This document shows positions 13,859-31,066 of a DNA stretch of 64,000 nt, piece by piece (within the stretch, counting starts at the first letter, position 1; every line of letters starts with the position of its first letter). The stretch lies in contig CAKURH010000003.1 of the NCBI GenBank assembly GCA_934675625.1, forward strand, positions 4,503 to 68,502. The letters are read 5' to 3'. The position numbers and the translations under genes were made by a program. Origin of the DNA: an uncultured Kiritimatiellota bacterium. Its GTDB lineage: Bacteria > Verrucomicrobiota > Kiritimatiellia > RFP12 > UBA1067. Below the pieces are notes generated by a model that made no database searches, was not told the DNA's origin, and saw only the letters and a program-made list of their open reading frames with translations.

Positions 13859-14506
13859 TCAACCGCGCAGCTTCTTCACAAGCGCGGCGGCATCCGCCGC
13901 CAGCTTCTCGATGGCCGCGTAGTCGCCGGCCGCCAGCGCGTCCTTCGGGACAATCCACGTGCCGCCGCAGCAGACGATCTCCGGGACGGCGAGGTAGTCC
14001 GCGACGTTGTCGAGCTTGACGCCGCCCGTCGGCATGAACTTCACGCCCGTGAAGCGGAACGCGCCGAGGAGGTTCCTGATCATCTTGACGCCGCCCGCCG
14101 CCTCCGCCGGGAAGAACTTGACCATCCGGCAGCCCGCCGTCAGGGCCTGCGAGAGCTCGCTCGCCGTCGCGATGCCGGGGCACATCGGAAGCCCCTCGGC
14201 CTGCGCCGCCGCCATCACGACCGGGTCGAGGCCCGGCGCGACGCCGAACACCGCGCCCGCCGCCTTCGCGGCCTTCACCATCTCGGGCGTGAGGAGCGTC
14301 CCCGCGCCGAGGATCGCCTCCGGCACCTCGCGCTTGATTGCCGCGATCGCGCCCGCCGCCGCCGGCGTGCGGAACGTGACTTCGAGGACGGGCAGCCCGC
14401 CCTTCACGAGCGCCCGCGCGAGCGGCACGGCCTGCTCTTCCTTCTCGATGACGATGACCGGGATGATCCCCGCCTTGCCCAACGTTTCAACCATGTTCAT
14501 GTCCAT
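13859..14506 (-). CDS. eda: 2-dehydro-3-deoxyphosphogluconate (KDPG) / 4-hydroxy-2-oxoglutarate aldolase
   Basis: Full-length Eda-like sequence (IIPVIVIE..., VLEVTFRTPAA, VKFFPAEAAGG, FMPTGGV). The SD position suggests the real start may be the third Met (14500). Confidence 0.9.
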   Translation of the reverse strand: MDMNMVETLGKAGIIPVIVIEKEEQAVPLARALVKGGLPVLEVTFRTPAAAGAIAAIKREVPEAILGAGTLLTPEMVKAAKAAGAVFGVAPGLDPVVMAAAQAEGLPMCPGIATASELSQALTAGCRMVKFFPAEAAGGVKMIRNLLGAFRFTGVKFMPTGGVKLDNVADYLAVPEIVCCGGTWIVPKDALAAGDYAAIEKLAADAAALVKKLRG

Positions 14507-17475: not shown

Positions 17476-18474
17476 TCAGCCGATTCCAATTGCCCGCGAC
17501 AGGGCCGCAACCCACGCCGCACATTTCGCGGCGGCGTCCGCCTCGACCAAGAGCCGCAGGTAGGGCTCGGTGTTCGACTTGCGCACGCTGATCCAGCCGT
17601 CCGCAAATTCGAGGCGCACGCCGTCAATCTCGCTGCGCCCCGTCTCAGCGCCGAACGCGCGGGCGGCCGCAAGCGCGCGCGCAATGGCCGCATCCTTGTC
17701 CTCGACCCTGAAGTTGAGCTCGCCCGAATTCGCGTAGCGCGAGACGATGGGGCGCATCAGCTCGGAAAACGTCTCGCCGCGCGCCTTCGCGGCGGCGACC
17801 GCACCGAGAACCCGCAGTGCCGCAAGCGCGCCCGAATCGCAGCCGAAGAACTCGCCAAAATAGTAGTGGCCCGCGAGTTCGCCGCCGCAGAGCGCGTTCA
17901 GCTCGCGCATCTTCGGCTTCGCGAACGCATGCCCGACCGGCACCATCACCGGCACGAAGCCCTCCTCGCGCAACGTCTCGATCGCCCCGCGCGACGTGCG
18001 CACGTCATGCAGAACAATCGGCCTCTCGCCCAGTGTGATGGACGCCTGTGCCTGCCGGTTCTGTGCGGCGGGCGCGTTCGCCCGCCGCGTCGCTTCGGCG
18101 ACAACGGGAATCAGGTAGTCGGGCTGGACGAACGCGCCGTTCTCGTCGACGAACATCGCGCGGTCGGCATCGCCGTCGAAAATGACGCCGCAGTCAAGCC
18201 TCTTGTCTCTCACGCACGCGGCGACCTGCGCGCGCGCCTCAGCCTTGAGCGGATTCGGCGAATGGTTCGGGAACGTCCCATCCAGCGTGTCGTTGAGCAC
18301 GACCGCGCCCGGAAACAGGTCGTGCACGAGCAGCGACGCCATGCCGTTCGAGCAGTCGACGGCGAAGCGGAGCCCGTCAAGTTTCGGCTTCCGCCCTTTC
18401 ATCCAGTCCAGATAGCGCGCGCGAAAGTCCATGTCCGCCGACCTTTCTCCGTAATCAGGCGAACCCCAGGACAT
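17476..18474 (-). CDS. Phosphomannomutase/phosphoglucomutase family protein lacking domain I (N-terminally truncated; possible pseudogene)
   Basis: Contains the metal loop FDGDADR, the sugar loop GGELAGHYYF and the phosphate loop RKSNTEP (domains II-IV). It has no TASHNP-type phosphoserine domain. Its 5' end is overlapped by the dapB 3' end. Confidence 0.65.
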   Translation of the reverse strand: MSWGSPDYGERSADMDFRARYLDWMKGRKPKLDGLRFAVDCSNGMASLLVHDLFPGAVVLNDTLDGTFPNHSPNPLKAEARAQVAACVRDKRLDCGVIFDGDADRAMFVDENGAFVQPDYLIPVVAEATRRANAPAAQNRQAQASITLGERPIVLHDVRTSRGAIETLREEGFVPVMVPVGHAFAKPKMRELNALCGGELAGHYYFGEFFGCDSGALAALRVLGAVAAAKARGETFSELMRPIVSRYANSGELNFRVEDKDAAIARALAAARAFGAETGRSEIDGVRLEFADGWISVRKSNTEPYLRLLVEADAAAKCAAWVAALSRAIGIG

Positions 18475-19180
18475 GGCGCATCGTGTAGATGCCGGGGGCC
18501 TGTCCCCGCGCCCAGACGAGCGCCTTCAGCGCGCCGGCGGCGAACGCCGCGCGATCCTGCGCCTTGTGCGTCAGCTCGACGCGCTCAAGGTCGCCCGCAA
18601 ACATGACGGTGTGGTCGCCGACGACCGCGCCGCCGCGCAGCGCGTGAATCGCAATCTCGCCGACGGGACGTTCCCCGATGTCGCCGTGGCGGCCGAAGAC
18701 GAAATCGTCGCCCAGTCCGCGCCCCTGCGCCGCCGCCTTGGCCAGCATGAGCGCCGTGCCCGACGGCGCGTCCTTCTTATGGCGGTGGTGCATTTCCGTC
18801 ACCTCGATGTCGTAGGCGGGCCCCAGCACCGTCGCCGCCCGCTGGACAAGCTCCAGCAGGAGGTTCACGCCGAGCGAATAGTTGCCGCTCTGCACGACCG
18901 GGATCTTCTGCGCGGCGGCATCCACGACCTTCTGCTCGTCGGGCATGAGGCCCGTCGTGCCAATCACATACGGGATTCCCTGCTCGGCCGCCTGCGCGAC
19001 GAAGCCGGGCACGCCCGCGTGATACGAGAAGTCGATGACGCCCTCGGTCTCCTTCGGCCATGTTCGGTCGTAGCCCTCCGCCACGTCGACCTTGGCAACG
19101 ACCTCCAGCCCGGCGTCCTGCGCCAGCTCAACCAGTTTCTTTCCCATGCGCCCGGCGGCGCCGACAAGTGCGATTTTCAT
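18455..19180 (-). CDS. dapB: 4-hydroxy-tetrahydrodipicolinate reductase
   Basis: MKIALVGAAGRMG (NAD(P) fold), EMHHRHKKDAPSGTA signature, full length at 241 aa. Confidence 0.92.
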   Translation of the reverse strand: MKIALVGAAGRMGKKLVELAQDAGLEVVAKVDVAEGYDRTWPKETEGVIDFSYHAGVPGFVAQAAEQGIPYVIGTTGLMPDEQKVVDAAAQKIPVVQSGNYSLGVNLLLELVQRAATVLGPAYDIEVTEMHHRHKKDAPSGTALMLAKAAAQGRGLGDDFVFGRHGDIGERPVGEIAIHALRGGAVVGDHTVMFAGDLERVELTHKAQDRAAFAAGALKALVWARGQAPGIYTMRHVLGFA

Positions 19181-19212
19181 GTGTCTTCTCCCATCTCCGC
19201 TGTTGAGGCCGT

Positions 19213-19221
19213 ATTATAGCA
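19213..19221 (-). promoter_or_regulatory. Extended -10 promoter TGCTATAAT upstream of dapB
   Basis: The minus strand reads TGCTATAAT ~32 nt upstream of ATG 19180, with GGGAGAAG as the SD. Confidence 0.6.
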
Positions 19222-19334
19222 AAATCATCCCCAGCCGTCTTGACGCGGGCTTTCAGGGTTTCCATGCGCCCGTGGGGGGCTGACCACACTTTCCCGCCGA
19301 TTTCACGACGTCCGTCGCCCGCGTTCCCTTCGCA

Positions 19335-19877
19335 TCAGGCCGCTTCAGGGCTTTCGGGAAGAGGCGGCGGGCGGGGCGCAGGAGGCCGAAGAGGTTCGAG
19401 ACGAGCCGAAGCGAATCGTGCCGCTTGGCCGTCGCCGGGGCGCGCGTCGCCGAGAAGTCCGTCCCCGCGCGGAAGCGGAGGCCACGCGCGGCCGCCGATG
19501 CGGCGACCCACGCCCGCGAGCGCGTGGTCGTCCTCGTAAAGCCCGCCGACGTCGCTGTGGACACCAGGAAACAGCGCCTCCTCGACCTGCCCGCCCCGGA
19601 GCGGCACGTAGGCGTAGAAGCACCGCGCCTCGTGTTCGGCGACGGCGTGGCGCGCGAAGCGCACGTTCGCCGGACAGTCCTCCGCGACGGCAAGCCCCGG
19701 CGTCGCGTCCACCGTGTCCCAGAGGCCGAGGTATTCGACCCGCTTCGCCGCCCCGGCGTCAACCGCGTCGCCCGCATTGAGGGGATAGTTGTAGTAGCCG
19801 GGCCAGCGCTCCAGCTGCCCCGCCCGGTACGTCCCGACGAGGACGACCCTCTTCCCTGTCTTCACCTTGAAACTCAT
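19335..19877 (-). pseudogene. Remnant of a DUF2235 (Tle1-like alpha/beta-hydrolase/lipase) gene lacking the nucleophile half
   Basis: Retains YLGLWDTV, HAVAEHEAR-F and FPGVHSDVGGLY, which are C-terminal-half DUF2235 motifs. It has no GxSxG region, the N-terminal 50 aa are unrelated, and the tail is Pro/Arg-rich and low-complexity. Confidence 0.5.
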
Positions 19878-19893
19878 GCCCGTATTATACCAT
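19867..19893. repeat. 27-bp direct repeat copy 1 (TTGAAACTCATGCCCGTATTATACCAT)
   Basis: Identical to 25040..25066. It contains the -10 box plus the first 11 nt of the ORF (ATGAGTTTCAA). Confidence 0.9.
19884..19892 (-). promoter_or_regulatory. Extended -10 promoter TGGTATAAT giving a leaderless transcript
   Basis: TGGTATAAT-ACGGGC-ATG(19877). Only 6 nt separate the -10 from the start codon. Confidence 0.55.
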
Positions 19894-20289
19894 CTTGTCC
19901 GCGCCCCCGCGTCGCGCCAACAACCTCAAGCGCCCAACGCCAGCCTGTCGTGCCGGGCTGGGCCGTCGCCGGGGATAGGCGGGAGGGACGCGCTTGTCGC
20001 GTCCGTTCGCCCCCCTGACTTTACCACAGAGCACACAGAAAGTCGCGAAGGTTTTGCAATGACCTCATGTTTCCCTAAAGCCCTCGGATCCGCTCGGCAA
20101 CCGTCTTCCGGCTGACGCGCGATTCAACAACCGATTTCATGACACCCGCCATCTCCCACATCTGTTTCATTCATCGATCTCACATTTTGTTATGCGCCAC
20201 GCGCCATTTCGGTTTTCCAATCTATAGATGCGGCAATAAATCAGGTTGATTTTTCCCGATGTGAAGACAACTCCGATGATCGGCTTTCT

Positions 20290-20745
20290 TCATTTAGACC
20301 CTGCGTCTTGAGAGGCAAGTGGAAGCAGCTGCAATCCGTAGAGACATCTACCTTTTGTCATGCGCACCGCCATGGCTGTTGGTTCGGGCACGGAAACCAA
20401 GCACGCGGAATTCGTGGTGAAAGATGCTCCCATCGAGCGGAAATCTTTTTTGTACGCCAAGCGGAAACTCACAGCCTCTTGCGTGTTGCGCATCGGTATG
20501 AATGACAGCGAAAGATGCCGGTCACAAACCATGAATTCTGAATCACAAGGCACAGAAACAGCCTCTCCATACCGACTGATCTGAGGATCATGGCCGCCAA
20601 TCGCGTAAAGGTAGCGTCCTCCTGACTTCTTGAATGTGAACACGACATTTGTGCCTGTGGACTCAATGGAATCAAAGAATGACTTTAACGTGGCTTCCGT
20701 GATTTCCGGTTGCTGTACGGCTACGCTTCCACCCTGCGCAAGCAT
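20290..20745 (-). CDS. Hypothetical protein (151 aa), third gene of the low-GC island
   Basis: Track ORF 20290..20994 trimmed to MLAQGGSVAVQQ (ATG 20745, GGAAGGGGA upstream). It overlaps the upstream stop by 25 nt. I recognise no motif. Confidence 0.5.
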   Translation of the reverse strand: MLAQGGSVAVQQPEITEATLKSFFDSIESTGTNVVFTFKKSGGRYLYAIGGHDPQISRYGEAVSVPCDSEFMVCDRHLSLSFIPMRNTQEAVSFRLAYKKDFRSMGASFTTNSACLVSVPEPTAMAVRMTKGRCLYGLQLLPLASQDAGSK

Positions 20746-21743
20746 TCCCCTTCCGTTAACGCTTGCAACAGCCGCTTGCCAAACGTCGTCTTGATTTCGG
20801 ATACAGGCTTCAGAATCTTCGGGCAGCGCAAGACGGCCGCCGCATACCCCTTCGCGTCGTCCCCATCGACGAGATAGGCGAGATAGACGAGTTCGGACAC
20901 TTCCTCCGCCGACAGATGCATCAGCACGGAATTGCCGGCCTGAATGCTTTTCAACCGCTCCATGTGCCGCTCCTTCGGCTCCAAGCCACGCCACGTCAAG
21001 CCCAGAGTTTCGGGAAGCTGATAGTCTACCTGAAAGTCACAGCCTTCGTTCATGCGGAACACGCGATTTGAGAATGCAGCCTCTACCTTGAGTTTCTGCA
21101 TGGCCTGCCGTGACACCATGTTTGTGTAGCCAAGACCAAGAATTCCCGTGAGCGTTTTCTCGCTGGGATGCCATTTGTTCGGCTTTAGTCGAGCCATGTC
21201 CAGTTGAGTCTCTGGCGTCAGCAACATCAAGTGAACGAATTCATCCATGTAAGACTGGTATGGGTCATACGGCGGAAGGTATTTCCAGATCATTCGCCCT
21301 GTCACCCAAACACGCTTTCCCGCCCTCGGATTGCTTCGCGTTCCCTCGTCGAAATAGCAAAAACTCGACGGGGGGGCGATGAGGCCAAAAACATCAAATA
21401 GCGGCGGCAGAGCCTGTGCGCGCCGCGCAGTCTCATAGAGATAGCATCTCCTGTATCCGCCAACGGATACATCGCCCTTCAAGACTTCAACGCAGTATTT
21501 TTCATGCAGTCCAAGTTCTCGTCCCAGAGCGCGAGTGATCAGTGGCAAGTGCCGCTTGTCCTCTTGATGCGACGGCTCATGCATCAGCGCGATTTGCGCC
21601 CCCCTTAGGCAATTCGTGATTTCAGCGACGACAAATTCTTGAATCTCCGTCGAGGCATCGTCAAATCGGAAAGGCACGGCGTTCCCATCTAGGACAAACG
21701 CCAGCAGTCCTGACACGACAAATGCGAATCGAATGCATTTCAT
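20721..21743 (-). CDS. Hypothetical secreted/membrane-anchored protein (340 aa), second gene of the island
   Basis: N-terminal hydrophobic segment MKCIRFAFVVSGLLAFVL. ATGA overlap with the TSP3 gene stop (21740-21743). Codon usage matches the island. No recognisable domain. Confidence 0.6.
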   Translation of the reverse strand: MKCIRFAFVVSGLLAFVLDGNAVPFRFDDASTEIQEFVVAEITNCLRGAQIALMHEPSHQEDKRHLPLITRALGRELGLHEKYCVEVLKGDVSVGGYRRCYLYETARRAQALPPLFDVFGLIAPPSSFCYFDEGTRSNPRAGKRVWVTGRMIWKYLPPYDPYQSYMDEFVHLMLLTPETQLDMARLKPNKWHPSEKTLTGILGLGYTNMVSRQAMQKLKVEAAFSNRVFRMNEGCDFQVDYQLPETLGLTWRGLEPKERHMERLKSIQAGNSVLMHLSAEEVSELVYLAYLVDGDDAKGYAAAVLRCPKILKPVSEIKTTFGKRLLQALTEGECLRRVEA

Positions 21744-24700
21744 GGTTGCTCTCCTTCTTTTACATAGGCCGGATGGACATGATTAATCGGATTGGAACCA
21801 TAGGCTTCCTCATACGAGCAATGGTACCTGTAAGCGGCATTGTAGTTCAAATGGCGTTTGACCGAATATTCCATAAAACCACGGTCTTCAAACCTAATCC
21901 TCAAGGATTCGGCCAATTCCTGATTCACGGCCCTGGCAATCACCGCATCTGCGTTGTCTTCCGCATCTTGCCGTGTCTCGCCCTTCACAATCCATGTTGA
22001 AGTCACAACATTCTGATTCGAGATCGCCTGTTGCGAAACGAAATACTTTAAGCCCTTTATCGTATAGCAGTCCCCTTGTCCGCCTTGAGATGTCGGAACC
22101 TCGCCCCTCACTTGTTTGATGTGAAACTCTTCCTCGGCTCGTACCTTGTCCGCATATTGCCCCGTCCATGTAAAGTTCTGTCCGTCCGGTTCGGTATAGA
22201 TGGAACCTTCCTCAAACTGAAAGGGCTTGAAGACTATTTCACAATACCAATAGTCTTCGCTTGTCGAATGATAGAACTTCGCCTCTCCGCGATGCGTATC
22301 GTTTCCAGTCGGTGGCAACACCAAGGAATGCGCATTTGACTCCGGCCATCCGACAGGACATTTCCTTGAAAGGACAGTTAACCCGTTCTCGCGCAAATCA
22401 AACGCATATTCATGGTGGTATTTGGCGCAATCTCGGTCCGGGAGAACGCCGTACCAATAGATGGGCGATGTCCGCCAAATATGGGTGCCGGTCTTCTCCG
22501 TCGTCACGGTTGTGCCGTGATTGTCATTTACAAGCGTCCCACTTCCAACGGGCCTACAAAGCAATTCAAAGTTTCTGATAGTCAGAGCCGAACCTGTGAC
22601 ACAGGGCTCGACACGGACTGTTGCCGTACGGCTGTCGATCAGCTCCCCATCTTGACACACATCATACGGCATTATCCTGTCTGACCGGACGACGAGTTTG
22701 ACAACATCCAGATAAGCCGCCTTGCTCTCGCCTGAAAAACGGGTGCTCGTGTTGTCGTCCGTGACGAACAGTCCCTTTGGGTCGTCCAGAAAAACGCCGG
22801 ACGTCTGGTCGGTGTCCACCAACAGGAGGCGATAGTCATAATCCGGGTATCCTTCGCCGGAATTTTTGCAAGCCGCCCATCTGAGCTTCACCTCATACCG
22901 CCAGCCAGGCTTAAGCGCAGCCGTCTTCGTCTCGCACTCGCCATACTCTCGGTTCAGGAACACATGCGAACGCGGTAACGGCCCATTCCCAGAGCCCGTC
23001 ACCGGGATGACTGCAAGCGAATACTTCTCGGAACTGCTGCCGCTCGGATCGCCAAACTCCAGACGTACAGGTCTGCAGCTGCCGGGCCTTCCGACGTCCG
23101 ACGCATCGAGAGGATCGCTGGCACCCAGAGCCTCGGCACCGTCCGACACGCCATCTCCGTCGGTATCGGATTGATTCGGGTTCGTCCCCCAGTCGTTTTC
23201 TTCGCCATTCGTCAAGCCATCACCATCGGGGTCGGCATCGGCATCATTGTCAGGGTCTGCGTCCGTGTTGTTGTCCACGGTCGGGTCATACCCCGACTCA
23301 TCTTCCCAGCCATCCGTCAGCCCGTCACCATCCGTATCAGGCTGTCGCGGATCTGTGCCGAGCAACAGCTCAAAGCCGTCATTCAAGCCATCATAATCCG
23401 TATCAGAACGAAACGGGTCTGTTCTGCGACTGATTTCCGCGCCGTCCTTCAGCCCATCGCCGTCTGTGTCGGGGTTGGTCGGGCTTGTCCCGTACACGTT
23501 CACTTCCTGACCATCCGAGAGCCCGTCCCCATCCGTGTCGGCACGGAGCGGATCCGACCCGTGCCCCAGGCGGTACTCGACCGTCGTCCCCGGCAGGATC
23601 GGCCCGCGCTCGGCGAAGTCCCACGTCAGGTTGTAGAGCCCGTCCGGCGTGACGATGCGCCGGACCTGCACGCCGACGACGGCATCCGATCCGTCAAGCC
23701 AGACGTCCGACGCAAGGTAGCTCACGCGCACGACGGAACCAGTCCCGCCGGGGACGATGACCTGATAGGTCATCCTGCGGTCGTCGGACGTCCCTCGCAG
23801 CCTCACGTTGCGGTATTCGACGACGAAGCAGCCGTTGCTCTCGACGATCCCCGTCCGCATGCACGACGAGGCGTCGCCGTCGACCAGCGCCGTGCTGCAC
23901 CAGTAGGGCGCAACCAGGATGTCGCCCATGCTGTAGGTCCCCCTGTCCAGCGGCGTCGCGAGTTCGGGGAAGACAAGAGCAACGTTCGATCCGGGCGCAT
24001 CCAGGTACATAACCCCGTTGTCGAAGCACACCGCCTTCGACATCAGGCTGCCAAGGACCGTCAGGCCGTCAGGCAGCGAAGCGATCGCTAACGCCCCCCA
24101 GTAGCTGTGCAGACCCTCTCCGTATGAGGTTCCGTAGACCGTCGCCCAGCCCGACGTGTCGTACCACTCGAAAGCGTCCGTCCTGACGATGCATCCCGTC
24201 TCCACGCCGTCCGCGAGCCCGTCGCCGTCGGTGTCTGCGCCCAGGGGGTCTGTCCCCAGGGCAACCTCATCGCCGTCGCCCAGCCCGTCCCCGTCCGTGT
24301 CGGGGTTCGCGGGGCCTGTCCCCAGCGTCCACGCCTCATAGGCGTCCGAGAGGCCGTCGCCGTCCGAGTCGTCCTGCGTGGCGAGCCGGAAGAACGCCGC
24401 GCGTTCCATCGCGTTCGTCTGGAAGCTGTCAATGCCGATCTCGACAGCCGCGGGGGACTGCGCGCCGGACACGTCGACCTGCGCGAGGCGCGTCCAGCCG
24501 CCCGATGCCAGCTGCCAGTGCCCAAAGACGTCGAGACGGCCGTTGGGCAGGGAGAGGCCGTCCGGCCACGCCACCCCCAGCGTCACCGTGTCAGTTCCCC
24601 TCTCGATTCCATAGAAACAGGGGTTTGTCACCGAAGACAATGTGAGGTTGCTGTCGCTTAATGCGGAGTTGTTGGAGGCGGGGAGGCGCGGAGGGTCTTT

Positions 24701-25021
24701 GACAGGATTTACAGGATTTGAGGCGTTTGGCGTATCCGTCTCGGCAATCCTGTCAATCTTGTCAATCCCGTCTAAAAAACCACCCGCCGCTTCGGCGCAC
24801 CGTTCCTTGTACGTCCGCGTCACCGAGCCCTCCATCGTCGCAAAGGCCATGAAGCCGCCGAGGACGAAGACCGTCGGCCAACCAAGCCGCCGGACCGCCG
24901 CGCGCACACGGGCGGAACAGCGCGACAGGCCAAGCGCCAGCGCGGCAAGGGCGACACCGCCCAAGCCAAGGCAACAGCCCCACAGCACGACCGAGTCGAA
25001 AGCCGCTCGATCCATCGTCAC
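21740..25021 (-). CDS. Membrane-anchored thrombospondin type-3 repeat protein with NIDO-like insert and ~450-aa C-terminal domain of unknown function
   Basis: Two N-terminal TM helices (aa 10-32 and 48-62). D-x-D-x-D-G-x-x-D-x-x-E Ca-binding repeats lie at aa 217-274 and 489-640. The insert carries ILVAPYW...VVEYRNV (NIDO-like). GTG start at 25021, with an alternative ATG at 25015. Confidence 0.85.
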   Translation of the reverse strand: MTMDRAAFDSVVLWGCCLGLGGVALAALALGLSRCSARVRAAVRRLGWPTVFVLGGFMAFATMEGSVTRTYKERCAEAAGGFLDGIDKIDRIAETDTPNASNPVNPVKDPPRLPASNNSALSDSNLTLSSVTNPCFYGIERGTDTVTLGVAWPDGLSLPNGRLDVFGHWQLASGGWTRLAQVDVSGAQSPAAVEIGIDSFQTNAMERAAFFRLATQDDSDGDGLSDAYEAWTLGTGPANPDTDGDGLGDGDEVALGTDPLGADTDGDGLADGVETGCIVRTDAFEWYDTSGWATVYGTSYGEGLHSYWGALAIASLPDGLTVLGSLMSKAVCFDNGVMYLDAPGSNVALVFPELATPLDRGTYSMGDILVAPYWCSTALVDGDASSCMRTGIVESNGCFVVEYRNVRLRGTSDDRRMTYQVIVPGGTGSVVRVSYLASDVWLDGSDAVVGVQVRRIVTPDGLYNLTWDFAERGPILPGTTVEYRLGHGSDPLRADTDGDGLSDGQEVNVYGTSPTNPDTDGDGLKDGAEISRRTDPFRSDTDYDGLNDGFELLLGTDPRQPDTDGDGLTDGWEDESGYDPTVDNNTDADPDNDADADPDGDGLTNGEENDWGTNPNQSDTDGDGVSDGAEALGASDPLDASDVGRPGSCRPVRLEFGDPSGSSSEKYSLAVIPVTGSGNGPLPRSHVFLNREYGECETKTAALKPGWRYEVKLRWAACKNSGEGYPDYDYRLLLVDTDQTSGVFLDDPKGLFVTDDNTSTRFSGESKAAYLDVVKLVVRSDRIMPYDVCQDGELIDSRTATVRVEPCVTGSALTIRNFELLCRPVGSGTLVNDNHGTTVTTEKTGTHIWRTSPIYWYGVLPDRDCAKYHHEYAFDLRENGLTVLSRKCPVGWPESNAHSLVLPPTGNDTHRGEAKFYHSTSEDYWYCEIVFKPFQFEEGSIYTEPDGQNFTWTGQYADKVRAEEEFHIKQVRGEVPTSQGGQGDCYTIKGLKYFVSQQAISNQNVVTSTWIVKGETRQDAEDNADAVIARAVNQELAESLRIRFEDRGFMEYSVKRHLNYNAAYRYHCSYEEAYGSNPINHVHPAYVKEGEQP
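23102..23557 (-). repeat. Coding TSP3 repeat block 2 (~7 units)
   Basis: DTDGDGLSDGQE, DTDGDGLKDGAE, DTDYDGLNDGFE, DTDGDGLTDGWE, DPDGDGLTNGEE, DTDGDGVSDGAE. Confidence 0.85.
24200..24373 (-). repeat. Coding TSP3 repeat block 1 (3 units)
   Basis: DDSDGDGLSDAYE / DTDGDGLGDGDE / DTDGDGLADGVE. Confidence 0.85.
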
Positions 25022-25039
25022 GGATCAATCACGGGAACA

Positions 25040-25066
25040 TTGAAACTCATGCCCGTATTATACCAT
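25040..25066. repeat. 27-bp direct repeat copy 2 (contains TGGTATAAT -10 box and ATGAGTTTCAA)
   Basis: Identical to 19867..19893. The flanking bases differ on both sides. Confidence 0.9.
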
Positions 25067-25106
25067 ACTCATGTCCGTCGATTCTCTAAGGCCCGATGGA
25101 TGACAA

Positions 25107-28100
25107 TCACAAGTCCACGGCCTTGGACGGCCTGATCTCATCGGCGAAAAGGGAAACGAAGCCTGTCGCAAACGCATGGCAGCAACTTGCCTGCGGCGCG
25201 TCATGTTCCCACAGTGTTCCGGTGCGGTCTGCCATGTCCGCATAGTAGGCAAGGGCTTCCTTTCGGGCGAGTTCGGGCATTCCCGCACGCGCAAGGCAGA
25301 GGAAGCGCAATTGCATGCCGGGGAAGAGGCCGGCCTTCTTCAGAGAGCCGCGTTCGCCCCGCACCAGACGCCCCCAAAGTTCGGCGTCGCGGACAGAGTC
25401 CGCCGTACCCGTGAAGAACGCATAGTACTGACACGTCTCGGTCGCTTCAGGACGCACGGCAAGTGCGCCATCCTTCCCGCGCACCGCATGGTCACGGAAC
25501 TGGACGCCATCAAATGCCTGTGCCCGGACAGCGGAACGGATCGCATCCGCACGACGGACGCAACACTCCCATCCGTACAGTCGCCCGACCGCATCCAATG
25601 CGGCGGCATAGAGCATGTTCGCCGGATAGTTCACGTCCTGCACATAGCCGTTTGACGCATCCCAACCGACGAATACCCATGACGGAAGCTTTTCAAGAAG
25701 TCCATCTGCGTTGACATATCCATCAAACCACTTCAACAGCTCCCTCACGCGTCCCTCCAGCAGCTTCGCCGTCTCGCGATCTCCGGTTCGGCGCACATAG
25801 TCCTCGATTTCAAGGAGGAACCACAGCGCATACGTCGGAATGTAGAGCCCATCCGTATGATCCGACGGATAGCACATCGCCACCATGCCCTTCGGAAGAT
25901 GCGGAAATCCCTTCGCAAGCGCATAGTCGCGAAGGAACGCACGCTCTACCGACGCATTGCCTGCAAGCAACTGCAGACTTGGGCCCGAAAAATAGGAATC
26001 TCCCAGCCAGCCGGCGCGTTCGCGGCTCGGGCAGTCCATTGGCACGTCCGTTGCGCACTGCGCAAGCGTCCGGGCGGCCGCCGCCAAGACCTTGGCGGCC
26101 ACGGGATCCGCCCCCACATAGACGTTGTTGAAAGCCTCGGCATTCCGATAGCGACGCACGACAGGCGCCTTCCACGTCGCCTTGCCGGAGAGCATCGCCA
26201 AGCGGGCAAACTTGAACGTCTGAGGCTCGAAGAACTCCAGCACATATCGCCCCGGGCGCCTGATGTCCCATATTGCGCCGGCCGCGATTTCGATGCGTAG
26301 CGGGTTCACGTCTCCATCAGGCGTACGCAACTCGTCCACGGCCGCCATGAACCGCCCCGGCTCCGTACACGCCAGCTCGACCTGAAGGAATCCAGTGGTG
26401 TTATGCTCTCCGGCATAGAGCTTCGCCGGAACCTTTCGCCCTGCCACGCCAGGCTTGGCCCTACGCCATTTTGCCAGTTCGTGCCACACGTTCACGTCGC
26501 ATTCCTCTGCCTTATACCCGCAGAAGACAGGCGGCGCGACATTCTCGAAGCATCGCGTCCTGGGCAAAGGCGTCGATTCGTCGCAGACAATGTCGTAGGC
26601 ATCGACCTCGACGAACGACCTGTCGAGACTGAAGTCACAAAGCGGCACCTCCCGTGCGAGAAAGCGCGGCGCGGTGACAGTTTCCAATTCCCGCGACGGA
26701 GCCGGCGCACCGCCGATCAGGTACGCCTCCGAGAAGCCTCTCTGGAAACTGGCTCGCGGCGTCTTGACGATGCGTTCGGATGCCCGTGCCGTCCAGTTTG
26801 TTCCGCCAGTCGCGGAAAGGACTCGCCCGTTTTGCACGACTTCCGCCGCGAGAAACGGAGACTGGTCCATGTACACGAAGTTGTTGCACCGATACGCGTT
26901 CACTTCGACGCGCAGTCGGTTTCTCCCCGCATTCAGCCGAACCGGAAGAGCATCGACACGCGCAAGGCCAGTCGGCGCGCGCGCAGGGCCCGCCGAGACG
27001 AATGCGCCGTTCAACTCGGCCTTGTAGCAGGACGCGGCCGCAATCCGCAACTCTGCCAGGCCATCCTCAGCCGTCAGTTCCGTCTCGAATGCGAACGTCT
27101 CGTTCATCGTGTCGCCCGCGCCCTTTGGCCACACCGCCTGTGCAGCAAGGAACAGGTCAGGCGCATTGAATTTCTTGTGGTTCAGGAACTCCCAGACGCG
27201 ATCCAGCCACGTGTAGCTGCCCGTACCCGGTGCGGCGGCGTTCATGAAGCAGTGATCCCTCGTCGCCAACGTATGCAAATCGCCCTGCACCCCCATGCGA
27301 CGCAACTGTTCCCAGCACTTGACCGAATTCATCGCCGCCCATCCGTCCGCATCGCCGTGCAGGAACAGCATCGGACAGGTCGAAAGGTCGAAGGAGAACT
27401 CCGGCGCGAGACGCGCCGCATCGTCATTGCCGCCCGTGCGATTCGGCTCGTCAAGACCGTCCGTCAGTGCATAGGCCGGATACAGCGCAATGCCCCACTG
27501 CACATTGCACGGAATAAGATCTGTCTCATCGACCGGCCAATATGACTTGCGCCGAGAACTTGTCGCCCCCATGATCGTGAGATGTCCACCGGCGGACGCA
27601 CCCATGATCCCAATGCGGTTCGGATCGAGGTGACGCGCCTCCGCTTCGCGGCGCACGACGCGGACTGCACGCTGAAGATCCTGCCAGGCGCTCGTATGCT
27701 TCGCGAGGCCTGTCGGACGCGGTGTGCGGTATTTGAGCGTCACGACCGTCATGCCCTTCTCGTTCAGGTAGCGTCGCGCCGACGTTACGCCATCCCAGGA
27801 ATCCGGACGGTTATCGAAGTAGGCTCCGCCGGAATAGATGATCTGGATGCCCTTGGTGCGAGGCGTCTTCGGAAGATGCCATTCGAGATATGGAACGCAC
27901 TGGTTCGTCTGTGCAGCCGGCATCTTGCCTTCTGGCCAAAGGGGCATCCGTTCGTAGCCACCCCGATCGGCATCATCCGGGAAACGCGCGGCAAGGCCGA
28001 CCTCATCGCCGAGCCGTCCATCGAAGTTCATCTGGCGGATGAACTCAAGCGCGCGGTCAAACCAGTGATCCCATGCCGTGCCGTCATCGCCACGGTTCAT

Positions 28101-29009
28101 GTCGCCGTGAAACCCATGCCAGCGATCCGCGAAAAGATGCAGCTCGGCAGGTATCTTCATCCGGCGGAGCTGACGGTATATCTGCGTTGAACCCAAAGGG
28201 GAGAAATCGTCCGCCCCCCCGTGGAACAGGCACATCGGGCAGGTCTTGCCGTCAAACGCAAGCTCTTTCACGAGCGCGACGTCGGGCGCATCTCCCTCGC
28301 GGGCGTTCGGCACGCCCTCGCCGTCTGTCAGCACGTATGCCGCAGCCTGCGGCACGGCGAAGAGCAGGTTGCACGGCAAGGCATCGAGTTCGTCGACCGG
28401 GGCATACGCCGCCGTCTCCGACGATGTGGCCAGAAGGAGGACGAGCTTGGCGCCGGCCGATATTCCCGTGGCGCCGATCTTCTCCGGGCTGAAGCCCCAC
28501 TTCGACGCATGCGCCCGCATGAACCGTATGGCCCTCTGCGCATCTTCCCAGCCGGACTGGTGTATTGCAAGCCCCTTCGGACGAGGTGTACGGTACGTCA
28601 GGTTCGCGACCGTCACGCCCGCGCGGACGAATCTGTCAATGGCCGGCTGCAGGCGTTCCGCGTCACAGCAGGACGAGAAGCCGCCGCCCGAGACCATGAG
28701 CACGGCAAGGTCGGTTCGATTGGACGGATTCGGCGCGTACCAGTCGATGTACGGTCGCCGAAAGTCCTCCGCGCGAAACATCTGGGCACGGGTCTCTTCC
28801 GCCTGCGCGGCGATCTGATGCGGCTGCTCGTCCGGCATCTTGCCTTCGGGCCAGATGTATTCGCGCAGGACTGGCCTTGCCGAAGGCGTCAGCGGCCCGA
28901 ACGACGCCCGGTCATCCGGCGAACCCCATGTCCCAAACGCCCAAGACGATGCCGCCGCCACAAGGCAGACGAGTGACACGGCACACTTTCGCACGCATTC
29001 AGCGTACAT
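25107..29009 (-). CDS. Secreted tri-domain enzyme: two tandem alpha/beta-hydrolase (carbohydrate-esterase-like) domains fused to a GH78 alpha-L-rhamnosidase domain
   Basis: Start at MYAECVRKCAVSLVCLVAAASSWA (ATG 29009, GGAGAGGA upstream). Esterase motifs are SGGGF/GISAGA and SGGAY/GASAGG, each followed by H(G)GADD or HGDADG. The GH78 hallmark DCPSRERAGWLGD is present. Confidence 0.85.
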   Translation of the reverse strand: MYAECVRKCAVSLVCLVAAASSWAFGTWGSPDDRASFGPLTPSARPVLREYIWPEGKMPDEQPHQIAAQAEETRAQMFRAEDFRRPYIDWYAPNPSNRTDLAVLMVSGGGFSSCCDAERLQPAIDRFVRAGVTVANLTYRTPRPKGLAIHQSGWEDAQRAIRFMRAHASKWGFSPEKIGATGISAGAKLVLLLATSSETAAYAPVDELDALPCNLLFAVPQAAAYVLTDGEGVPNAREGDAPDVALVKELAFDGKTCPMCLFHGGADDFSPLGSTQIYRQLRRMKIPAELHLFADRWHGFHGDMNRGDDGTAWDHWFDRALEFIRQMNFDGRLGDEVGLAARFPDDADRGGYERMPLWPEGKMPAAQTNQCVPYLEWHLPKTPRTKGIQIIYSGGAYFDNRPDSWDGVTSARRYLNEKGMTVVTLKYRTPRPTGLAKHTSAWQDLQRAVRVVRREAEARHLDPNRIGIMGASAGGHLTIMGATSSRRKSYWPVDETDLIPCNVQWGIALYPAYALTDGLDEPNRTGGNDDAARLAPEFSFDLSTCPMLFLHGDADGWAAMNSVKCWEQLRRMGVQGDLHTLATRDHCFMNAAAPGTGSYTWLDRVWEFLNHKKFNAPDLFLAAQAVWPKGAGDTMNETFAFETELTAEDGLAELRIAAASCYKAELNGAFVSAGPARAPTGLARVDALPVRLNAGRNRLRVEVNAYRCNNFVYMDQSPFLAAEVVQNGRVLSATGGTNWTARASERIVKTPRASFQRGFSEAYLIGGAPAPSRELETVTAPRFLAREVPLCDFSLDRSFVEVDAYDIVCDESTPLPRTRCFENVAPPVFCGYKAEECDVNVWHELAKWRRAKPGVAGRKVPAKLYAGEHNTTGFLQVELACTEPGRFMAAVDELRTPDGDVNPLRIEIAAGAIWDIRRPGRYVLEFFEPQTFKFARLAMLSGKATWKAPVVRRYRNAEAFNNVYVGADPVAAKVLAAAARTLAQCATDVPMDCPSRERAGWLGDSYFSGPSLQLLAGNASVERAFLRDYALAKGFPHLPKGMVAMCYPSDHTDGLYIPTYALWFLLEIEDYVRRTGDRETAKLLEGRVRELLKWFDGYVNADGLLEKLPSWVFVGWDASNGYVQDVNYPANMLYAAALDAVGRLYGWECCVRRADAIRSAVRAQAFDGVQFRDHAVRGKDGALAVRPEATETCQYYAFFTGTADSVRDAELWGRLVRGERGSLKKAGLFPGMQLRFLCLARAGMPELARKEALAYYADMADRTGTLWEHDAPQASCCHAFATGFVSLFADEIRPSKAVDL

Positions 29010-31035
29010 ACGTGATCCTCTCCCCATCTGCTTCAATGAATGGCACGCCCTCCTCCGGCATTCCGGCCTTCACGCCGAGCCCCTCAATCCACCAGCCATA
29101 GGGCGCCAGGCGATGCCCGTCAATCGTCCGAGGCACATCGCCAAGGTTCACGAGGAAGCGCACGCCACCGTATGTCGCCACAACGGTTCCGTCGTCGGAC
29201 GGCGTGGCCGGATCAATGCCACGCGCGAACAGGGGTGATCTGTCGTGTACAAACTCCGTGACACGGCCACCAACAGTCCGTGAAAGCACACGGGACTGTA
29301 GGGCGTGCAACCAGGCATACCAGCGCCGAATACGCTTATCCTTCGTCAGCTCATCTGCCTTGTACGCCACGACAATGTTGTAGCCGAGCGCAAGAACCCA
29401 CGCGAGGACACGCTCGTTCCTGGTGAAACCCGCGAGATCATGATGGTAGAAAAGGAGCTTGTCTCGGAAGAGGCGCTGGGCCACAGGTTCGAGAACCCAC
29501 GTGTCAGCGGGGAAACGCTTTTCCTTGTGCAGTTTCCGTCCGACCATGTCCTCAAGCGGAACAGTCCCCCAGGCGCAGCCGGTCAGTCCGAGTTCTGAAT
29601 CCGCCACCATGTCAAAGCCGTCCTCCGTGAAGAGCGGCATGTGGCGGCTGTCCTCCTCTACAATGGAAATCATACCCTCCTCATGCGCCGTGACGGACGG
29701 GGAATGCGGGCTGAAGTCGCGAAACCACGGCAGGGAACCGCACTGATCCTGAAACAGGATGTCAGAGCCATAGGTCTCGCGCGCTTCACGCCGGGTGGCG
29801 CGGTTCGCCGCCTGCACGACCGGATGCCAGTACGTGATGTTGTAGCCCTTGTGCGGCCCGTACCTGAGCGTAATCGGGCTGCCGTCGCGCTTTCTGGCGA
29901 TCGGCTCCATGCCGGCCTTCTTGAACACCTCCGACTTAAAGGGTTCGGAACCCCACCAGCATGGATTCGTGTACGGCATGAACAGTCCGCCACGGGCATG
30001 GATGGCCGCCACCATGTTCTTGAAGTCGTCGGAGCTGCCAAACGTCTTCCGGGGCGGGAAGAAATCGGGATATGCGTTGTCGAAGCCATGCGGCATGTAG
30101 TCGTGGATATGGACGAGCGTCGGCATCGGCAAGTCCTCGGCAAGTGAGGTAATCCGCTTCGCGTCGGCAGCGAGGACGAGCAACAGCGGAGAGGCGGCAA
30201 GCTTGCGCAGAAACGCCGTCCCGTCACGCGGCGGCAGTTTCGACGACAGCGAACGGCCGAGGCCATTTTCCTTCAGGTACGCCGCGAGGGACGAATCGAC
30301 GGTTCCGCCCTCGACGATCCGCACCACTGGCGTCTCGACCGATTCGCCGGGCTTCAGCCAGTACGCCGATGCATGCGAATAGTATCCGCCACGGCTATCG
30401 CCAGCCACAGTCGCCGATCCCGGAACGAACGGATGCGGATTCTTCCACGGCGCAAAATACCCGCGACGCTGGACGCCATAGACCTGGATGGACGCGCCGG
30501 ATTTCGTCTCCAGCCGCGCCCAGTCCGCAAAGAGCGGCGGGTAGGGGACGGAGTAGTTGCACTTGGACGTGAAGAATTTCTCGTTGAGCGCCATGCCCGT
30601 CGTCTCGTTGCCGCGACCCGGGTAGACGAACCTCGCCACATCGGCTGGACGAAAGCGCAGGTTCGCAGGGAAGTGGAATTCCTCGACGATGCCCTCCTTC
30701 GCCGTCAAACGGGCTTTCATCGTCAAGGATCCGTCGCGCGGACGCACCGTCGTTACCGTGACATCCAAGACGGGAGACGACCATTTCGAGACAACCGTAT
30801 CGCCGCGTCGCGTCTCTGTGAATCGTCCGCCGATGCGGTCCTCCCGTTCGACCTGCGCCGCAGAAAGCCTATTCGTCTCGGCGAACTTCACGCGCCACAG
30901 GCCGTGTTCGCCGGATTCAAGATAGGTCTTTCCATGGACATCACGGGCCACGATACGCCCCTTCTCGCACCGCACCTCGCCCTTGGCGACCAAAAGCGTG
31001 CAAGCAACCGCCGAAAACGCAAGCAAAGCTCTCAT
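28999..31035 (-). CDS. Secreted hypothetical protein, putative glycanase-like (distantly resembles the 54.5-61.9 kb paralog family)
   Basis: Trimmed to MRALLAFSAVACTLLVAKG (ATG 31035, GGGAGGGG upstream). The HGFDNAYPDFFPPRKTFGSS...MPYTNP and LFTEDGFDMVADSELG segments parallel GGHDGPFPDLFPADERFGG...HLNQHN and FGGYSSECGCDHFAAELDN. Confidence 0.6.
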   Translation of the reverse strand: MRALLAFSAVACTLLVAKGEVRCEKGRIVARDVHGKTYLESGEHGLWRVKFAETNRLSAAQVEREDRIGGRFTETRRGDTVVSKWSSPVLDVTVTTVRPRDGSLTMKARLTAKEGIVEEFHFPANLRFRPADVARFVYPGRGNETTGMALNEKFFTSKCNYSVPYPPLFADWARLETKSGASIQVYGVQRRGYFAPWKNPHPFVPGSATVAGDSRGGYYSHASAYWLKPGESVETPVVRIVEGGTVDSSLAAYLKENGLGRSLSSKLPPRDGTAFLRKLAASPLLLVLAADAKRITSLAEDLPMPTLVHIHDYMPHGFDNAYPDFFPPRKTFGSSDDFKNMVAAIHARGGLFMPYTNPCWWGSEPFKSEVFKKAGMEPIARKRDGSPITLRYGPHKGYNITYWHPVVQAANRATRREARETYGSDILFQDQCGSLPWFRDFSPHSPSVTAHEEGMISIVEEDSRHMPLFTEDGFDMVADSELGLTGCAWGTVPLEDMVGRKLHKEKRFPADTWVLEPVAQRLFRDKLLFYHHDLAGFTRNERVLAWVLALGYNIVVAYKADELTKDKRIRRWYAWLHALQSRVLSRTVGGRVTEFVHDRSPLFARGIDPATPSDDGTVVATYGGVRFLVNLGDVPRTIDGHRLAPYGWWIEGLGVKAGMPEEGVPFIEADGERITYVR

Positions 31036-31066
31036 CCGCCCCTCCCAGCTTCCAGGCCTCATACCA

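Follow-up and report, generated by a model that had tools for sequence, protein, structure and literature searches.

A perfect 27-bp direct repeat as a probable remnant of two truncated methyltransferase genes in a gut Kiritimatiellae genome

Background

Two rearrangements linked to restriction-modification (R-M) genes are among the closest described relatives of the locus reported here: insertion of R-M genes with a long target duplication, and allelic substitution of R-M genes. Both are described in PMC2853133 (2010), which cites earlier work on Helicobacter pylori. In the insertion type, homologues of both an R and an M gene lie between repeats of more than 30 bp, the insert is shorter than 20 kb and carries no mobility genes, and a comparator genome has just one repeat copy at the corresponding position. 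A literature search on R-M in Kiritimatiellae returned nothing relevant.

We analyzed a 64,000-nucleotide stretch of DNA (the window) from an uncultured Kiritimatiellota bacterium. The segment from approximately 19,250 to 25,066 is most probably an eroded composite island of gut Kiritimatiellae from which both R-M operons have been deleted, and it would therefore be a defence island in decay, not a recent insertion into a DUF2235 gene.

Results

The sequence TTGAAACTCATGCCCGTATTATACCAT forms a perfect 27-bp repeat with exact copies at 25040-25066 (copy A) and 19867-19893 (copy B). The original observation of an exact repeat at these two places is confirmed: the window holds exactly two copies versus 0 expected, no further match occurs in it even at 3 mismatches, and none arises in 100 shuffles. 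The copies can be aligned over 30 nt with one mismatch. All genes here are read from the minus strand, to which every feature described below also belongs, and on it the repeat reads ATGGTATAATACGGGCATGAGTTTCAA. It contains an extended -10 box TGGTATAAT and an ATG with 8 more bases, which places a predicted promoter and a start codon on both sides of the foreign-looking gene block, as had been proposed. The box and ATG occupy 25057-25065 and 25048-25050 in copy A, and 19884-19892 and 19875-19877 in copy B. They are 6 nt apart in both copies, and this ATG is probably leaderless.

The motif TGNTATAAT occurs 7 times versus 0.1 expected, always on the coding strand, and at least four of these sites are directly upstream of ORF starts. 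The promoter motif of the repeat is typical of this genome, and the enrichment of the extended -10 motif suggests that both copies have promoter activity. A two-hexamer promoter scan called neither copy on the minus strand because a -35 match is absent.

Both copies recur with identical spacing at 18 loci (L001-L018), drawn from no fewer than 13 separate ENA metagenome assemblies built with different assemblers. Duplication during assembly, a possibility raised along with the original prediction, is ruled out as the source of the repeat because independent assemblies carry both copies. The spacing between copies is 5173 bp in the window versus 6894 bp in the related locus L109.

Copy B begins a methyltransferase gene fragment. 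Window positions 19861-19737 match an L020 gene for a 657-aa C5 methylase at 85-86% in its 5' part, and positions 19911-19737 and 20040-19737 are 93% and 91% matches to the beginnings of two L109 methylase genes. The ATGAGTTTCAA start in the repeat had been assigned to the resident DUF2235 gene. These matches indicate that it is instead the 5' end of what we call the head, an extended -10 promoter, an ATG and an approximately 180-codon N-terminal domain that begins Type II methyltransferase (MTase) genes in relatives. The window retains the first 47 codons of the downstream head (19737-19877; 85-93% nucleotide identity to the L020, L109 and L115 heads). The head domain has no Pfam match, and in a profile search of PDB sequences its sole match was a short C5-MTase motif that ends the aligned proteins. 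An AF2 model of the head (pLDDT 62) has weak structural matches of ASCH and 5hmC-REase-like type (E 0.06-0.6), and the domain is possibly PUA/ASCH-like.

At codon 47 the head meets approximately codon 111 of a DUF2235 gene. The deletion junction (19735-19740) carries the microhomology GGTCGA, which is common to both sides, and both parental contexts are present in L115. Beyond it lies the 3' ~60% of an approximately 255-aa DUF2235 gene (19313-19740), so that the 180-aa ORF annotated here consists of 47 head codons fused to a DUF2235 remnant. Its match to Pfam PF09994 is limited to profile positions 171-271 of 287, and it lacks the relatives' first ~110 residues, including FLFGFSRGA, where GFSRG is a GxSxG-type motif. 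The DUF2235 homologues, which are approximately 255 aa long, match only 41% of the ORF. A deletion of 11 bp near 19518/19519 leaves the 3' part of the remnant out of frame, and its alignment to L115 (94% nucleotide identity) shows the corresponding 11-nt gap. Given this fusion and frameshift, the 180-aa ORF is a chimeric pseudogene without the full-length PF09994 catalytic domain of a DUF2235/Tle1-like hydrolase. Neither does the window contain a Type II R-M system, because in place of an MTase catalytic domain and an endonuclease it has only the 47 non-catalytic head codons. A T6SS effector locus, suspected from the Tle1-like match, was rejected because the neighbors are glycan-degradation and housekeeping genes and the match is a 100-residue fragment. 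Synteny with L029 and L032 restarts at 19248/19249, by the dapB gene (18455-19249) that forms the right chromosomal flank and has its own TGCTATAAT promoter at 19213-19221.

The DNA preceding copy B also matches the island of relatives. Non-coding DNA upstream of the downstream head (19894-20075) has 91-97% nucleotide identity to L109 positions 13926-13962 and 14085-14231, and the sequence ahead of the L115 head is almost the same. Next to it is a 73-nt relic (20084-20157) of a YkuD-like 238-aa gene, with 90% nucleotide identity to L109 positions 13278-13350 and a tblastn match to codons 33-56. The intact 238-aa gene of L109 has a weak YkuD match. A low-GC spacer (20158-20720) contains a doubtful ORF (20290-20994) that has no family match in Pfam, and part of this spacer is homologous to the C-terminal extension of a 409-aa gene and a 57-aa ORF in L121.

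The TSP3 gene, which lies between the repeats and encodes a TSP3-repeat envelope protein, is chimeric. It is 96% identical at the nucleotide level to L032 down to 23443 and then diverges, and window positions 23542-20735 are 88% identical to L108. The 5' half (23444-25021) encodes two N-terminal hydrophobic segments and TSP3 repeats (Pfam TSP3_bac), with 78.5% nucleotide identity to L109 and 95% amino acid identity to the N-terminus in L121. The swapped 3' half (21740-23443, GC 0.53) encodes a variable C-terminal region, for which only 19 homologues were recovered. An AF2 model of this C-terminus (pLDDT 66) has beta-sandwich domains followed by helices. Foldseek comparison with the PDB gives no significant match to it, only generic beta-sandwich matches with E >= 0.003.

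A gene for a 340-aa protein with a hydrophobic N-terminus (20721-21743) follows, and its counterparts are directly downstream of the TSP3 gene in L108, L109, L121 and L110 too. The protein shares 88% amino acid identity with its homologue in L108, 48% with those in L109 and L121, and 38% with that in L110. The family is rare (68 representative clusters). The 348- and 239-aa genes of L024 were compared as candidate homologues of the 340- and 238-aa genes and rejected. The variable TSP3 C-terminus co-varies with this downstream partner gene. PADLOC has no match to either protein, Pfam has none to the 340-aa protein, and neither resource identifies a toxin or immunity domain in the pair.

Composition confirms a lower-GC island in part. 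Windows of 1 kb within 19,900-23,450 have a mean GC of 0.525 versus 0.661 +/- 0.031 elsewhere (z = -4.4), and the strongest tetranucleotide deviation of the whole stretch falls at 20,001-23,000 (z = 4.9). The interval 23,444-25,021 has a GC of 0.664, which is typical of this genome. The anomaly is thus real and affects only part of the interval, and the repeats that had been proposed as its borders do not bound it. It corresponds to the swapped 3' part of TSP3 together with the partner gene. Its left edge is inside the TSP3 gene at approximately 23,440-23,540, where the match to L032 stops and the match to L108 starts.

Copy A keeps only 11 nt of head coding sequence. To its left is a 1309-aa esterase/rhamnosidase-like gene (25107-29036; Pfam BD-FAE, Abhydrolase_3 and Bac_rhamnosid6H) that constitutes the left chromosomal flank. 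It has orthologues in five sister species with 92-97% amino acid identity, and in the window a DUF6259 gene adjoins it on its upstream side. To the right, the head start and junction DNA form a 10-codon relic ORF (25018-25050, MSFNVPVIDP), and its TGA shares bases with the TSP3 gene's GTG at 25021. The end of this ORF has a weak likeness to the 3' end of the L109 REase gene located ahead of TSP3 (~13/17 nt). On this short similarity, the far endpoint of the copy A deletion may lie in the 3' end of such a REase gene.

Related loci preserve fuller versions of this arrangement. L109 consists of a head-N6/N4 MTase gene with its REase gene, a TSP3 module of TSP3, 336-aa and 238-aa (YkuD-like) genes, and then a head-C5 MTase gene, an HNH REase gene, a small ORF and a DUF2235 gene. 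Its two methylases (PF01555 and PF00145) are 97% alike over their first 180 aa, and its REase has a PADLOC REase_II match. The two heads form a 567-bp direct repeat, 99.5% identical, around the MTase-REase-TSP3-336-238 segment. The same architecture occurs in L121 in a third chromosomal context, with a 431-bp repeat (97% identity) and an upstream R-M pair already reduced to a stub and remnants. Single heads are found in L020, at another site, and in L115, where a YkuD-like gene is followed by an intact downstream operon of head-MTase, REase, DpnD and DUF2235. The L115 operon adjoins an orthologue (92% amino acid identity) of the window's DUF6259 gene in an otherwise rearranged setting without the esterase gene, and its head and the DNA preceding it are almost identical to copy B and its surroundings. 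Intact R-M pairs are present in L109, L115, L020 and L121, and no genome was found in which both are intact at the exact site of the window.

Other relatives show reduced versions. L028, L032 and L111 carry an identical copy A stub at this position and lack any copy B. L032 keeps copy A and the TSP3 gene and has no scar, and L029 has neither copy and only a TSP3 fragment; these sister species represent further stages of decay. L031 has one copy only, flanked by A-type sequence on the left and B-type sequence on the right, and a TSP3 gene is still next to it. This copy differs at 3 of 27 positions, and ~58 nt of head coding sequence are kept at the copy A site, with ~45 nt of B-type head sequence beside the 27-mer. 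From this flank and head remnant, a head appears to have formerly occupied the copy A site. In L121 and L113, the sequence immediately before the TSP3 module is a longer head stub joined to REase remnants. L032, L029 and L031 are not clean single-copy empty sites, and none was found among the 80 best loci of a scan of species-representative genomes or in a JGI metagenome pattern scan.

These loci suggest a history for the window, with the series from L109 through L121, the window and L032 to L029 being a reconstruction across different species and sites. In the ancestral state, the first R-M pair and the TSP3 module would have lain between two near-identical heads in direct repeat. Both R-M pairs would then have been lost by deletion. 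The upstream head would have been cut back to +11, leaving the copy A promoter that now probably drives the TSP3 operon, and the downstream head would have been joined at codon 47 to the distal DUF2235 gene through the 6-bp microhomology, after which the remnant would have lost its further 11 bp. The perfect 27-mer would be the overlap still common to two differently truncated heads. In a separate event, a crossover within the TSP3 repeat-coding region would have replaced the 3' half of this gene and its 340-aa partner with a lower-GC allele.

An alternative that we consider improbable is promoter capture. Under this model, no R-M operon ever existed at the copy A site; ectopic conversion or a small duplication would have placed a short promoter/start segment of the downstream head there, which persisted because the TSP3 operon is driven from it. 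The 100% identity of copies A and B, when the L031 copy differs at three positions, is compatible with such copying, as are the weak similarity to the REase 3' end and an imperfect extra copy ACGGACATGAGT of ACGGGCATGAGT in the A-type flank that hints at local duplication. However, L031 has the same site and left flank with ~58 nt of head coding sequence, the longer stubs of L121 and L113 are accompanied by REase remnants upstream of the same module, and L032, L028 and L111 have copy A with no copy B as a donor. Since only 27 bp are shared, one copy may also have been recently converted by the other.

It is very unlikely that the 27-mer is an att or crossover site for a recombinase encoded elsewhere, with the TSP3 block an excisable integron-like cassette or mobilizable island. 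Identical direct repeats with no recombinase inside would fit this idea, as would the presence of the TSP3 module in at least three chromosomal contexts. However, the homology between copies in relatives extends for hundreds of bp with no tRNA-type or att-type short core, the truncation points differ by lineage (+11, ~+58, codon 47 and codon ~102-109), neither dyad symmetry nor an inverted repeat is seen at the repeat ends, and no single-copy excision product is among the metagenome matches. A phage or viral origin was rejected, since a 26-mer pattern has no match in IMG/VR and PADLOC is blank for the TSP3 and 340-aa proteins.

Least likely of all is the original reading, in which ~5.1 kb of foreign DNA entered an intact DUF2235 gene at its very 5' end and produced a 27-bp target duplication that regenerated the promoter. 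A perfect repeat does surround a compositionally atypical block in which Pfam detects no integrase or transposase domain, as had been noted. Against this reading, the duplicated start is that of a methylase head, the DUF2235 part is 5'-truncated and frameshifted, the repeat around the same module is 431-567 bp in relatives, copy B is missing from L032 even though copy A and the TSP3 gene are there, and the low-GC boundary falls within the TSP3 gene instead of at copy A. What had been taken for a target-site duplication appears to be the overlap of a truncated longer repeat (567 bp in L109, 431 bp in L121). The broader suggestion that DNA was inserted or recombined in survives as likely recombination, not transposition, and the DUF2235 start is not the site.

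Discussion

For the window itself, the decayed-island interpretation is mainly corrective. A tidy island with a target duplication becomes two deletion scars, the annotated DUF2235-family gene becomes a chimeric pseudogene, and the borders of the compositional island move. In the relatives, which belong to an uncultured lineage of the human gut and rumen, one island plan recurs. MTases of two classes begin with almost the same promoter and N-terminal domain, R-M cores are swapped while the head and DUF2235 tail on either side stay constant, and R-M pairs are repeatedly lost with the promoter stub retained. These loci provide material for studying turnover of R-M specificity by plain homologous recombination, and they raise the question of what roles the head domain and the small DUF2235 protein have. 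One tentative reading, which we regard as doubtful, is that head and tail are dedicated homology arms of a modular gut-Kiritimatiellae defence cassette. Recombination in these arms would swap MTase-catalytic and REase cores of different classes in frame and stack cassettes around an envelope-protein module that travels with them, and DUF2235 would be a functional and so far unrecognized Type II R-M partner.

Among known systems, the locus is a new example of R-M-linked rearrangement. It does not resemble a transposon, insertion sequence or integrase island, as it has no such Pfam domains, no terminal inverted repeats and no match to viral contigs. The TSP3 gene and its partner are similar to polymorphic toxin-immunity loci in having a conserved N-terminus with repeats, a variable C-terminus that changes together with the gene after it, and a crossover in repeat-coding DNA. 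This resemblance is in genetics only, and no toxin or immunity domain was recognized. The 6-bp junction microhomology, chimeric ORF and secondary 11-bp frameshift are like the microhomology deletion scars that accompany pseudogenization of defence genes. In this respect the window is not unusual, except that an upstream promoter stub has apparently been kept and is possibly reused for the neighboring operon.

R-M insertion with long target duplication (PMC2853133) is matched most closely by L109 and L121, in which near-identical direct repeats (431-567 bp) enclose Type II R and M genes, the insert is shorter than 20 kb without a transposase or integrase, and the repeat is also single-copy at other loci. 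Both R and M homologues lie between the repeats in L109, and in L121 they are reduced to remnants; the window has only the TSP3 gene, the 340-aa gene and relics there. At 5173 bp (window) and 6894 bp (L109), the inserts are within the size limit and free of mobility genes. The repeat of the window, at 27 bp or 30 bp with one mismatch, does not exceed 30 bp. The window thus differs in having no R-M genes and only 27 bp of the repeat left in both copies. The island as a whole differs in that a non-R-M module of TSP3, 340-aa and YkuD-like genes travels along, and in that what is duplicated as the target is another methylase gene's promoter and N-terminal domain, with the result that every duplication makes a new in-frame head-MTase fusion.

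Allelic R-M substitution (PMC2853133) is paralleled by the constant head (82-91% amino acid identity) and DUF2235 tail (85-97%) that bracket unrelated MTase-catalytic and REase cores. Four such cores occur between head and tail (N6_N4 with a 309-aa protein, C5 with HNH, C5 with NgoBV, and C5 with a BsaWI-like enzyme), and DpnD-PcfM precedes the DUF2235 tail in three of the four contigs. Unlike in the described cases, the conserved arms are not housekeeping genes. They belong to the cassette, with one of them within the methylase ORF, and the whole head-to-tail unit is found at several chromosomal sites.

Gene order and the promoter-like repeat

All genes of the region lie on the minus strand. 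In transcription order, the segment comprises a 1309-aa esterase/rhamnosidase-like gene (25107-29036), copy A of the 27-bp repeat (25040-25066), the gene (21740-25021) of a 1093-aa protein that has eight TSP3 repeats and a pair of N-terminal hydrophobic segments, a gene (20721-21743) for a 340-aa protein that is hydrophobic at its N-terminus, some 830 nt in which the sole ORF is doubtful, copy B (19867-19893), a 180-aa ORF (19335-19877) and dapB (18455-19180). A DUF6259 gene (28999-31062) sits just upstream of the esterase gene. The organism is a member of Kiritimatiellae according to the source annotation on a homologue, and genome records concur. Neither the C-terminal half of the TSP3 protein (only 19 homologues) nor the 340-aa protein (a family of only 68 representative clusters) has a Pfam or PADLOC hit. 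In the structure model of the TSP3 C-terminal part (pLDDT 66), helices follow a set of beta-sandwich domains, and the model has no significant match in the PDB. Beside dapB, a 318-aa phosphoglucomutase-like gene (17476-18474, minus strand) encodes PGM domains II-IV without domain I, for which the space upstream is insufficient; it is called identically in all related contigs.

The perfect repeat of the original prediction is confirmed. The 27-mer TTGAAACTCATGCCCGTATTATACCAT occurs at exactly two sites in the window, with no third site even when up to 3 mismatches are allowed, and is absent from shuffled sequence (0 occurrences); the match reaches 30 nt if one mismatch is allowed. Read on the minus strand it is ATGGTATAATACGGGCATGAGTTTCAA, in which an extended -10 box, TGGTATAAT, is followed by six bases and then ATGAGTTTCAA. 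The extended -10 motif TGNTATAAT is found seven times in the window (15359, 16552, 19213, 19884, 25057, 34982 and 45749, all minus strand) versus 0.1 expected. Because this motif is enriched, is confined to the coding strand (7/7) and lies just 5' of ORF starts at no fewer than four sites, for example that of dapB (19213-19221), it is reasonable to read the repeat as a promoter. A two-hexamer promoter scan did not call it, since a -35 match is absent. The ATG lies 6 nt past the -10 box in both copies of the repeat, which suggests that leaderless mRNAs would be made from them. Just upstream of the copy A -10 box, ACGGACATGAGT (25067-25078, minus strand) matches 11/12 positions of ACGGGCATGAGT, the segment after that box (25045-25056, minus strand). 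This feature also occurs in the related contig L031 and may be left over from a small tandem duplication that involved the promoter/start unit.

An assembly error can be ruled out as the source of the arrangement, as both copies recur at the same spacing in 18 loci (L001-L018), which come from no fewer than 13 distinct gut metagenome assemblies produced with different assemblers.

Two probable truncated methylase heads

The start codon within the repeat does not belong to a DUF2235 gene, as had been proposed, but to a "head", the promoter and ~180-codon N-terminal domain with which methyltransferase (MTase) genes begin in related gut Kiritimatiellae. The intact relative, contig L109, carries three blocks: a head-N6/N4 MTase (512 aa) with a restriction endonuclease (REase; 309 aa, PADLOC REase_II); a TSP3 protein with 336-aa and 238-aa proteins, the latter with a weak YkuD hit; and a head-C5 MTase (505 aa) followed by an HNH REase (282 aa), an 82-aa protein and DUF2235 (257 aa). 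Its two MTases are of different classes, and their first 180 residues are 97% alike. The corresponding direct repeat spans 567 bp at 99.5% identity, starting ~39 nt before the ATG and ending at codon ~176, and both heads start with TGGTATAATACG(G/C)GCATGAGTTTCAAGG, the sequence repeated in the window. Between its two copies, the window has the same module as L109: the 5' part of the TSP3 gene is 78.5% identical at the nucleotide level, the 340-aa and 336-aa proteins are 48% identical, a 73-nt relic of the 238-aa gene is left in the window, and identity is 91-97% in the non-coding DNA that precedes the second head.

In contig L121, the L109 architecture recurs in yet another chromosomal context, the third; here the repeat is 431 bp long (97% identity), and the TSP3 N-terminus is 95% identical to the window's. 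The upstream restriction-modification (R-M) pair of L121 is already reduced to a 109-codon head joined to an REase remnant, and the downstream operon (head-C5 MTase, BsaWI-like REase, DpnD, DUF2235) is intact. Contig L115 adjoins a gene orthologous to the window's DUF6259 gene (92% aa identity), lacks the esterase gene, and has a YkuD-like gene followed by head-N6/N4 MTase, REase, DpnD and DUF2235; the L115 head, with the flank upstream of it, is nearly identical to copy B and the DNA around that copy. Copy A retains only -16 to +11, whereas in copy B 141 nt of coding sequence and 150 nt or more before it are left. By these comparisons, the 27-mer is probably the overlap of two heads truncated to different extents.

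A group of defence-related genes lies directly upstream of the L109 island (L109 1304-6659), where a UvrD-family helicase, a 636-aa protein and an ABC/AAA_21 ATPase give PADLOC hits to mad3, AriA and GajA; the composite island is part of a larger defence neighbourhood.

The 180-aa ORF as a deletion scar

The original prediction placed an insertion at the 5' end of a DUF2235 gene, and this reading does not survive. The 180-aa ORF matches only positions 171-271 of 287 in Pfam PF09994, and its database relatives, ~255-aa DUF2235 proteins, cover only ~41% of it (residues ~47-125) at 85-96% identity. Its first 47 codons are not DUF2235: 19861-19737 aligns, at 85-86% identity, with 5' sequence of the contig L020 gene for a 657-aa C5 methylase, and 19740-19313 aligns with the distal ~60% of DUF2235 genes. 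Both parental contexts are present in L115, as GAAGCGGGTCGA followed by CGAG in the methylase and GTCGAGGTCGA followed by ATAC in DUF2235, and the window reads GAAGCGGGTCGAATAC at the junction. By this alignment, the junction is a deletion across the 6-bp microhomology GGTCGA, which joined the head codons to a 5'-truncated DUF2235 remnant. The remnant lacks the region with the relatives' GFSRG motif, and an 11-bp deletion puts its 3' end out of frame. The supposed resident gene is thus a scar. Several independent assemblies (L017, L018) end at about 19677, ~200 nt into this ORF and within the DUF2235 remnant, which suggests more DUF2235 copies elsewhere in the genome or strain variation there.

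Sister species and the low-GC segment

Among the loci recovered, five species-level relatives have the esterase gene at 92-97% aa identity. L028 is collinear with the window up to the contig end. L032 has copy A and a TSP3 gene with 96% identity to the window as far as 23443, beyond which it has a different C-terminal half, a 226-aa ORF and then dapB directly, without copy B or the scar. L029 lacks the repeat wholly and keeps only a ~930-nt TSP3 gene fragment between the esterase gene and dapB. In L031, a single 27-mer with 3 mismatches has an A-type left flank and then ~45 nt of B-type head coding sequence, followed by a 1221-aa TSP3 protein 61% identical to that of L032. Because B-type head sequence stands here behind an A-type flank, head coding sequence probably once existed at site A and was trimmed differently by lineage. 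L030 has unrelated low-GC cargo at the same site; this DNA (L030 10784-18444, GC 0.50-0.58) encodes 1193-aa (weak Laminin_G_3 hit) and 661-aa proteins. Downstream of the esterase gene there seems to be a hotspot for variable DNA. The single-copy empty site expected from an insertion was not found in clean form among the loci recovered by a species-representative genome scan (best 80 loci) and a JGI metagenome pattern scan.

The predicted low-GC island holds for only part of the interval between the repeats. GC is 0.525 in 19,900-23,450 versus 0.661 +/- 0.031 elsewhere (z = -4.4), and the window's largest tetranucleotide deviation falls there too (z = 4.9), but 23,444-25,021 is typical at 0.664, and the left edge lies inside the TSP3 gene. 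The window tracks L032 down to 23443 and then, from 23542 to 20735, contig L108 (88% nucleotide identity), whose genomic context differs; the ~100 nt common to both parts is TSP3 repeat-coding DNA. Across L108, L109, L110 and L121, the gene after TSP3 varies together with the TSP3 C-terminal region. From these alignments, the TSP3 gene is chimeric, and the low-GC segment is an allele swap of its 3' half together with the partner gene. This swap is independent of the 27-bp repeats.

The head domain and a possible mechanism

The head domain has 132 database relatives and no Pfam hit. Many of the relatives are ~250-aa proteins in which the head is followed by no more than the initial 30-50 residues (motif I) of a C5 methylase; these could be widespread truncated methylases or a distinct family. 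In one contig, such a relative (L117 8001-8723) is followed by ORF6N and HNH_2 genes. The head model (pLDDT 62) has a beta-rich core, and its matches, to ASCH and to a 5hmC-specific endonuclease, are all weak (E 0.06-0.6). PUA-like binding of modified bases or nucleic acid is a lead and not a result.

Beyond the observed homologies, repeat lengths, microhomology junction, frameshift and chimeric TSP3 gene, we infer how the arrangement may have arisen. The duplicated heads would come from homologous recombination between heads, either by Campbell-type integration of a circular intermediate or by unequal exchange, which would necessarily leave a long, near-identical direct repeat and corresponds to a class in the literature, "R-M insertion with long target duplication" (PMC2853133). 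Head identity is 99.5% within L109 versus ~90% between genomes, which fits a recent event or conversion. The R-M pairs would afterwards have been lost through illegitimate deletions, and the upstream promoter stub would have been retained because the TSP3 operon is transcribed from it. This stub is 100% conserved in the window, L028, L032 and L111, and is absent in L029, whose TSP3 gene is dead.

Comparison with known systems

The closest known systems are R-M complexes between long direct repeats and allelic substitution of R-M systems (both PMC2853133), together with ordinary microhomology-mediated deletion. The window falls outside the long-target-duplication class (PMC2853133), because there is no R or M gene between its repeats and the repeat is shorter than 30 bp. 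L109 has the gene content, repeat length and size of that class, whereas the R-M pair between the L121 repeats is already reduced to remnants; the empty site that also defines the class was found for none of the three.

Six different Type II R-M operons or defence clusters, which occupy different chromosomal sites (L115 6162-9588, L020 7084-10846, L121 15964-19684, L109 14248-17699, L024 6196-10798 and L019 280-4387), end with a ~255-aa DUF2235 (Tle1-like) gene, and a 62-aa DpnD-PcfM gene precedes it in half of them (3/6). The six DUF2235 proteins are 85-97% identical to one another and the R-M cores are unrelated; from this distribution, DUF2235 may be an unrecognised R-M accessory gene. Directly past DUF2235 in L020, a 45-aa ORF (10843-10980) preserves, as a relic, the 3' end of a 340-like gene (63% aa identity), so the R-M/DUF2235 operon and the TSP3/340 module are also neighbours in reverse order.

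The less ordinary feature is the constant head and DUF2235 tail of the relatives around unrelated cores. In four contigs, a head (82-91% aa identity) and a DUF2235 tail (85-97%), preceded by DpnD-PcfM in three of the four, enclose four unrelated MTase-catalytic/REase cores, and the head is joined in frame to methylases of two classes. That head and tail form a modular cassette is the more novel possibility left by this evidence.
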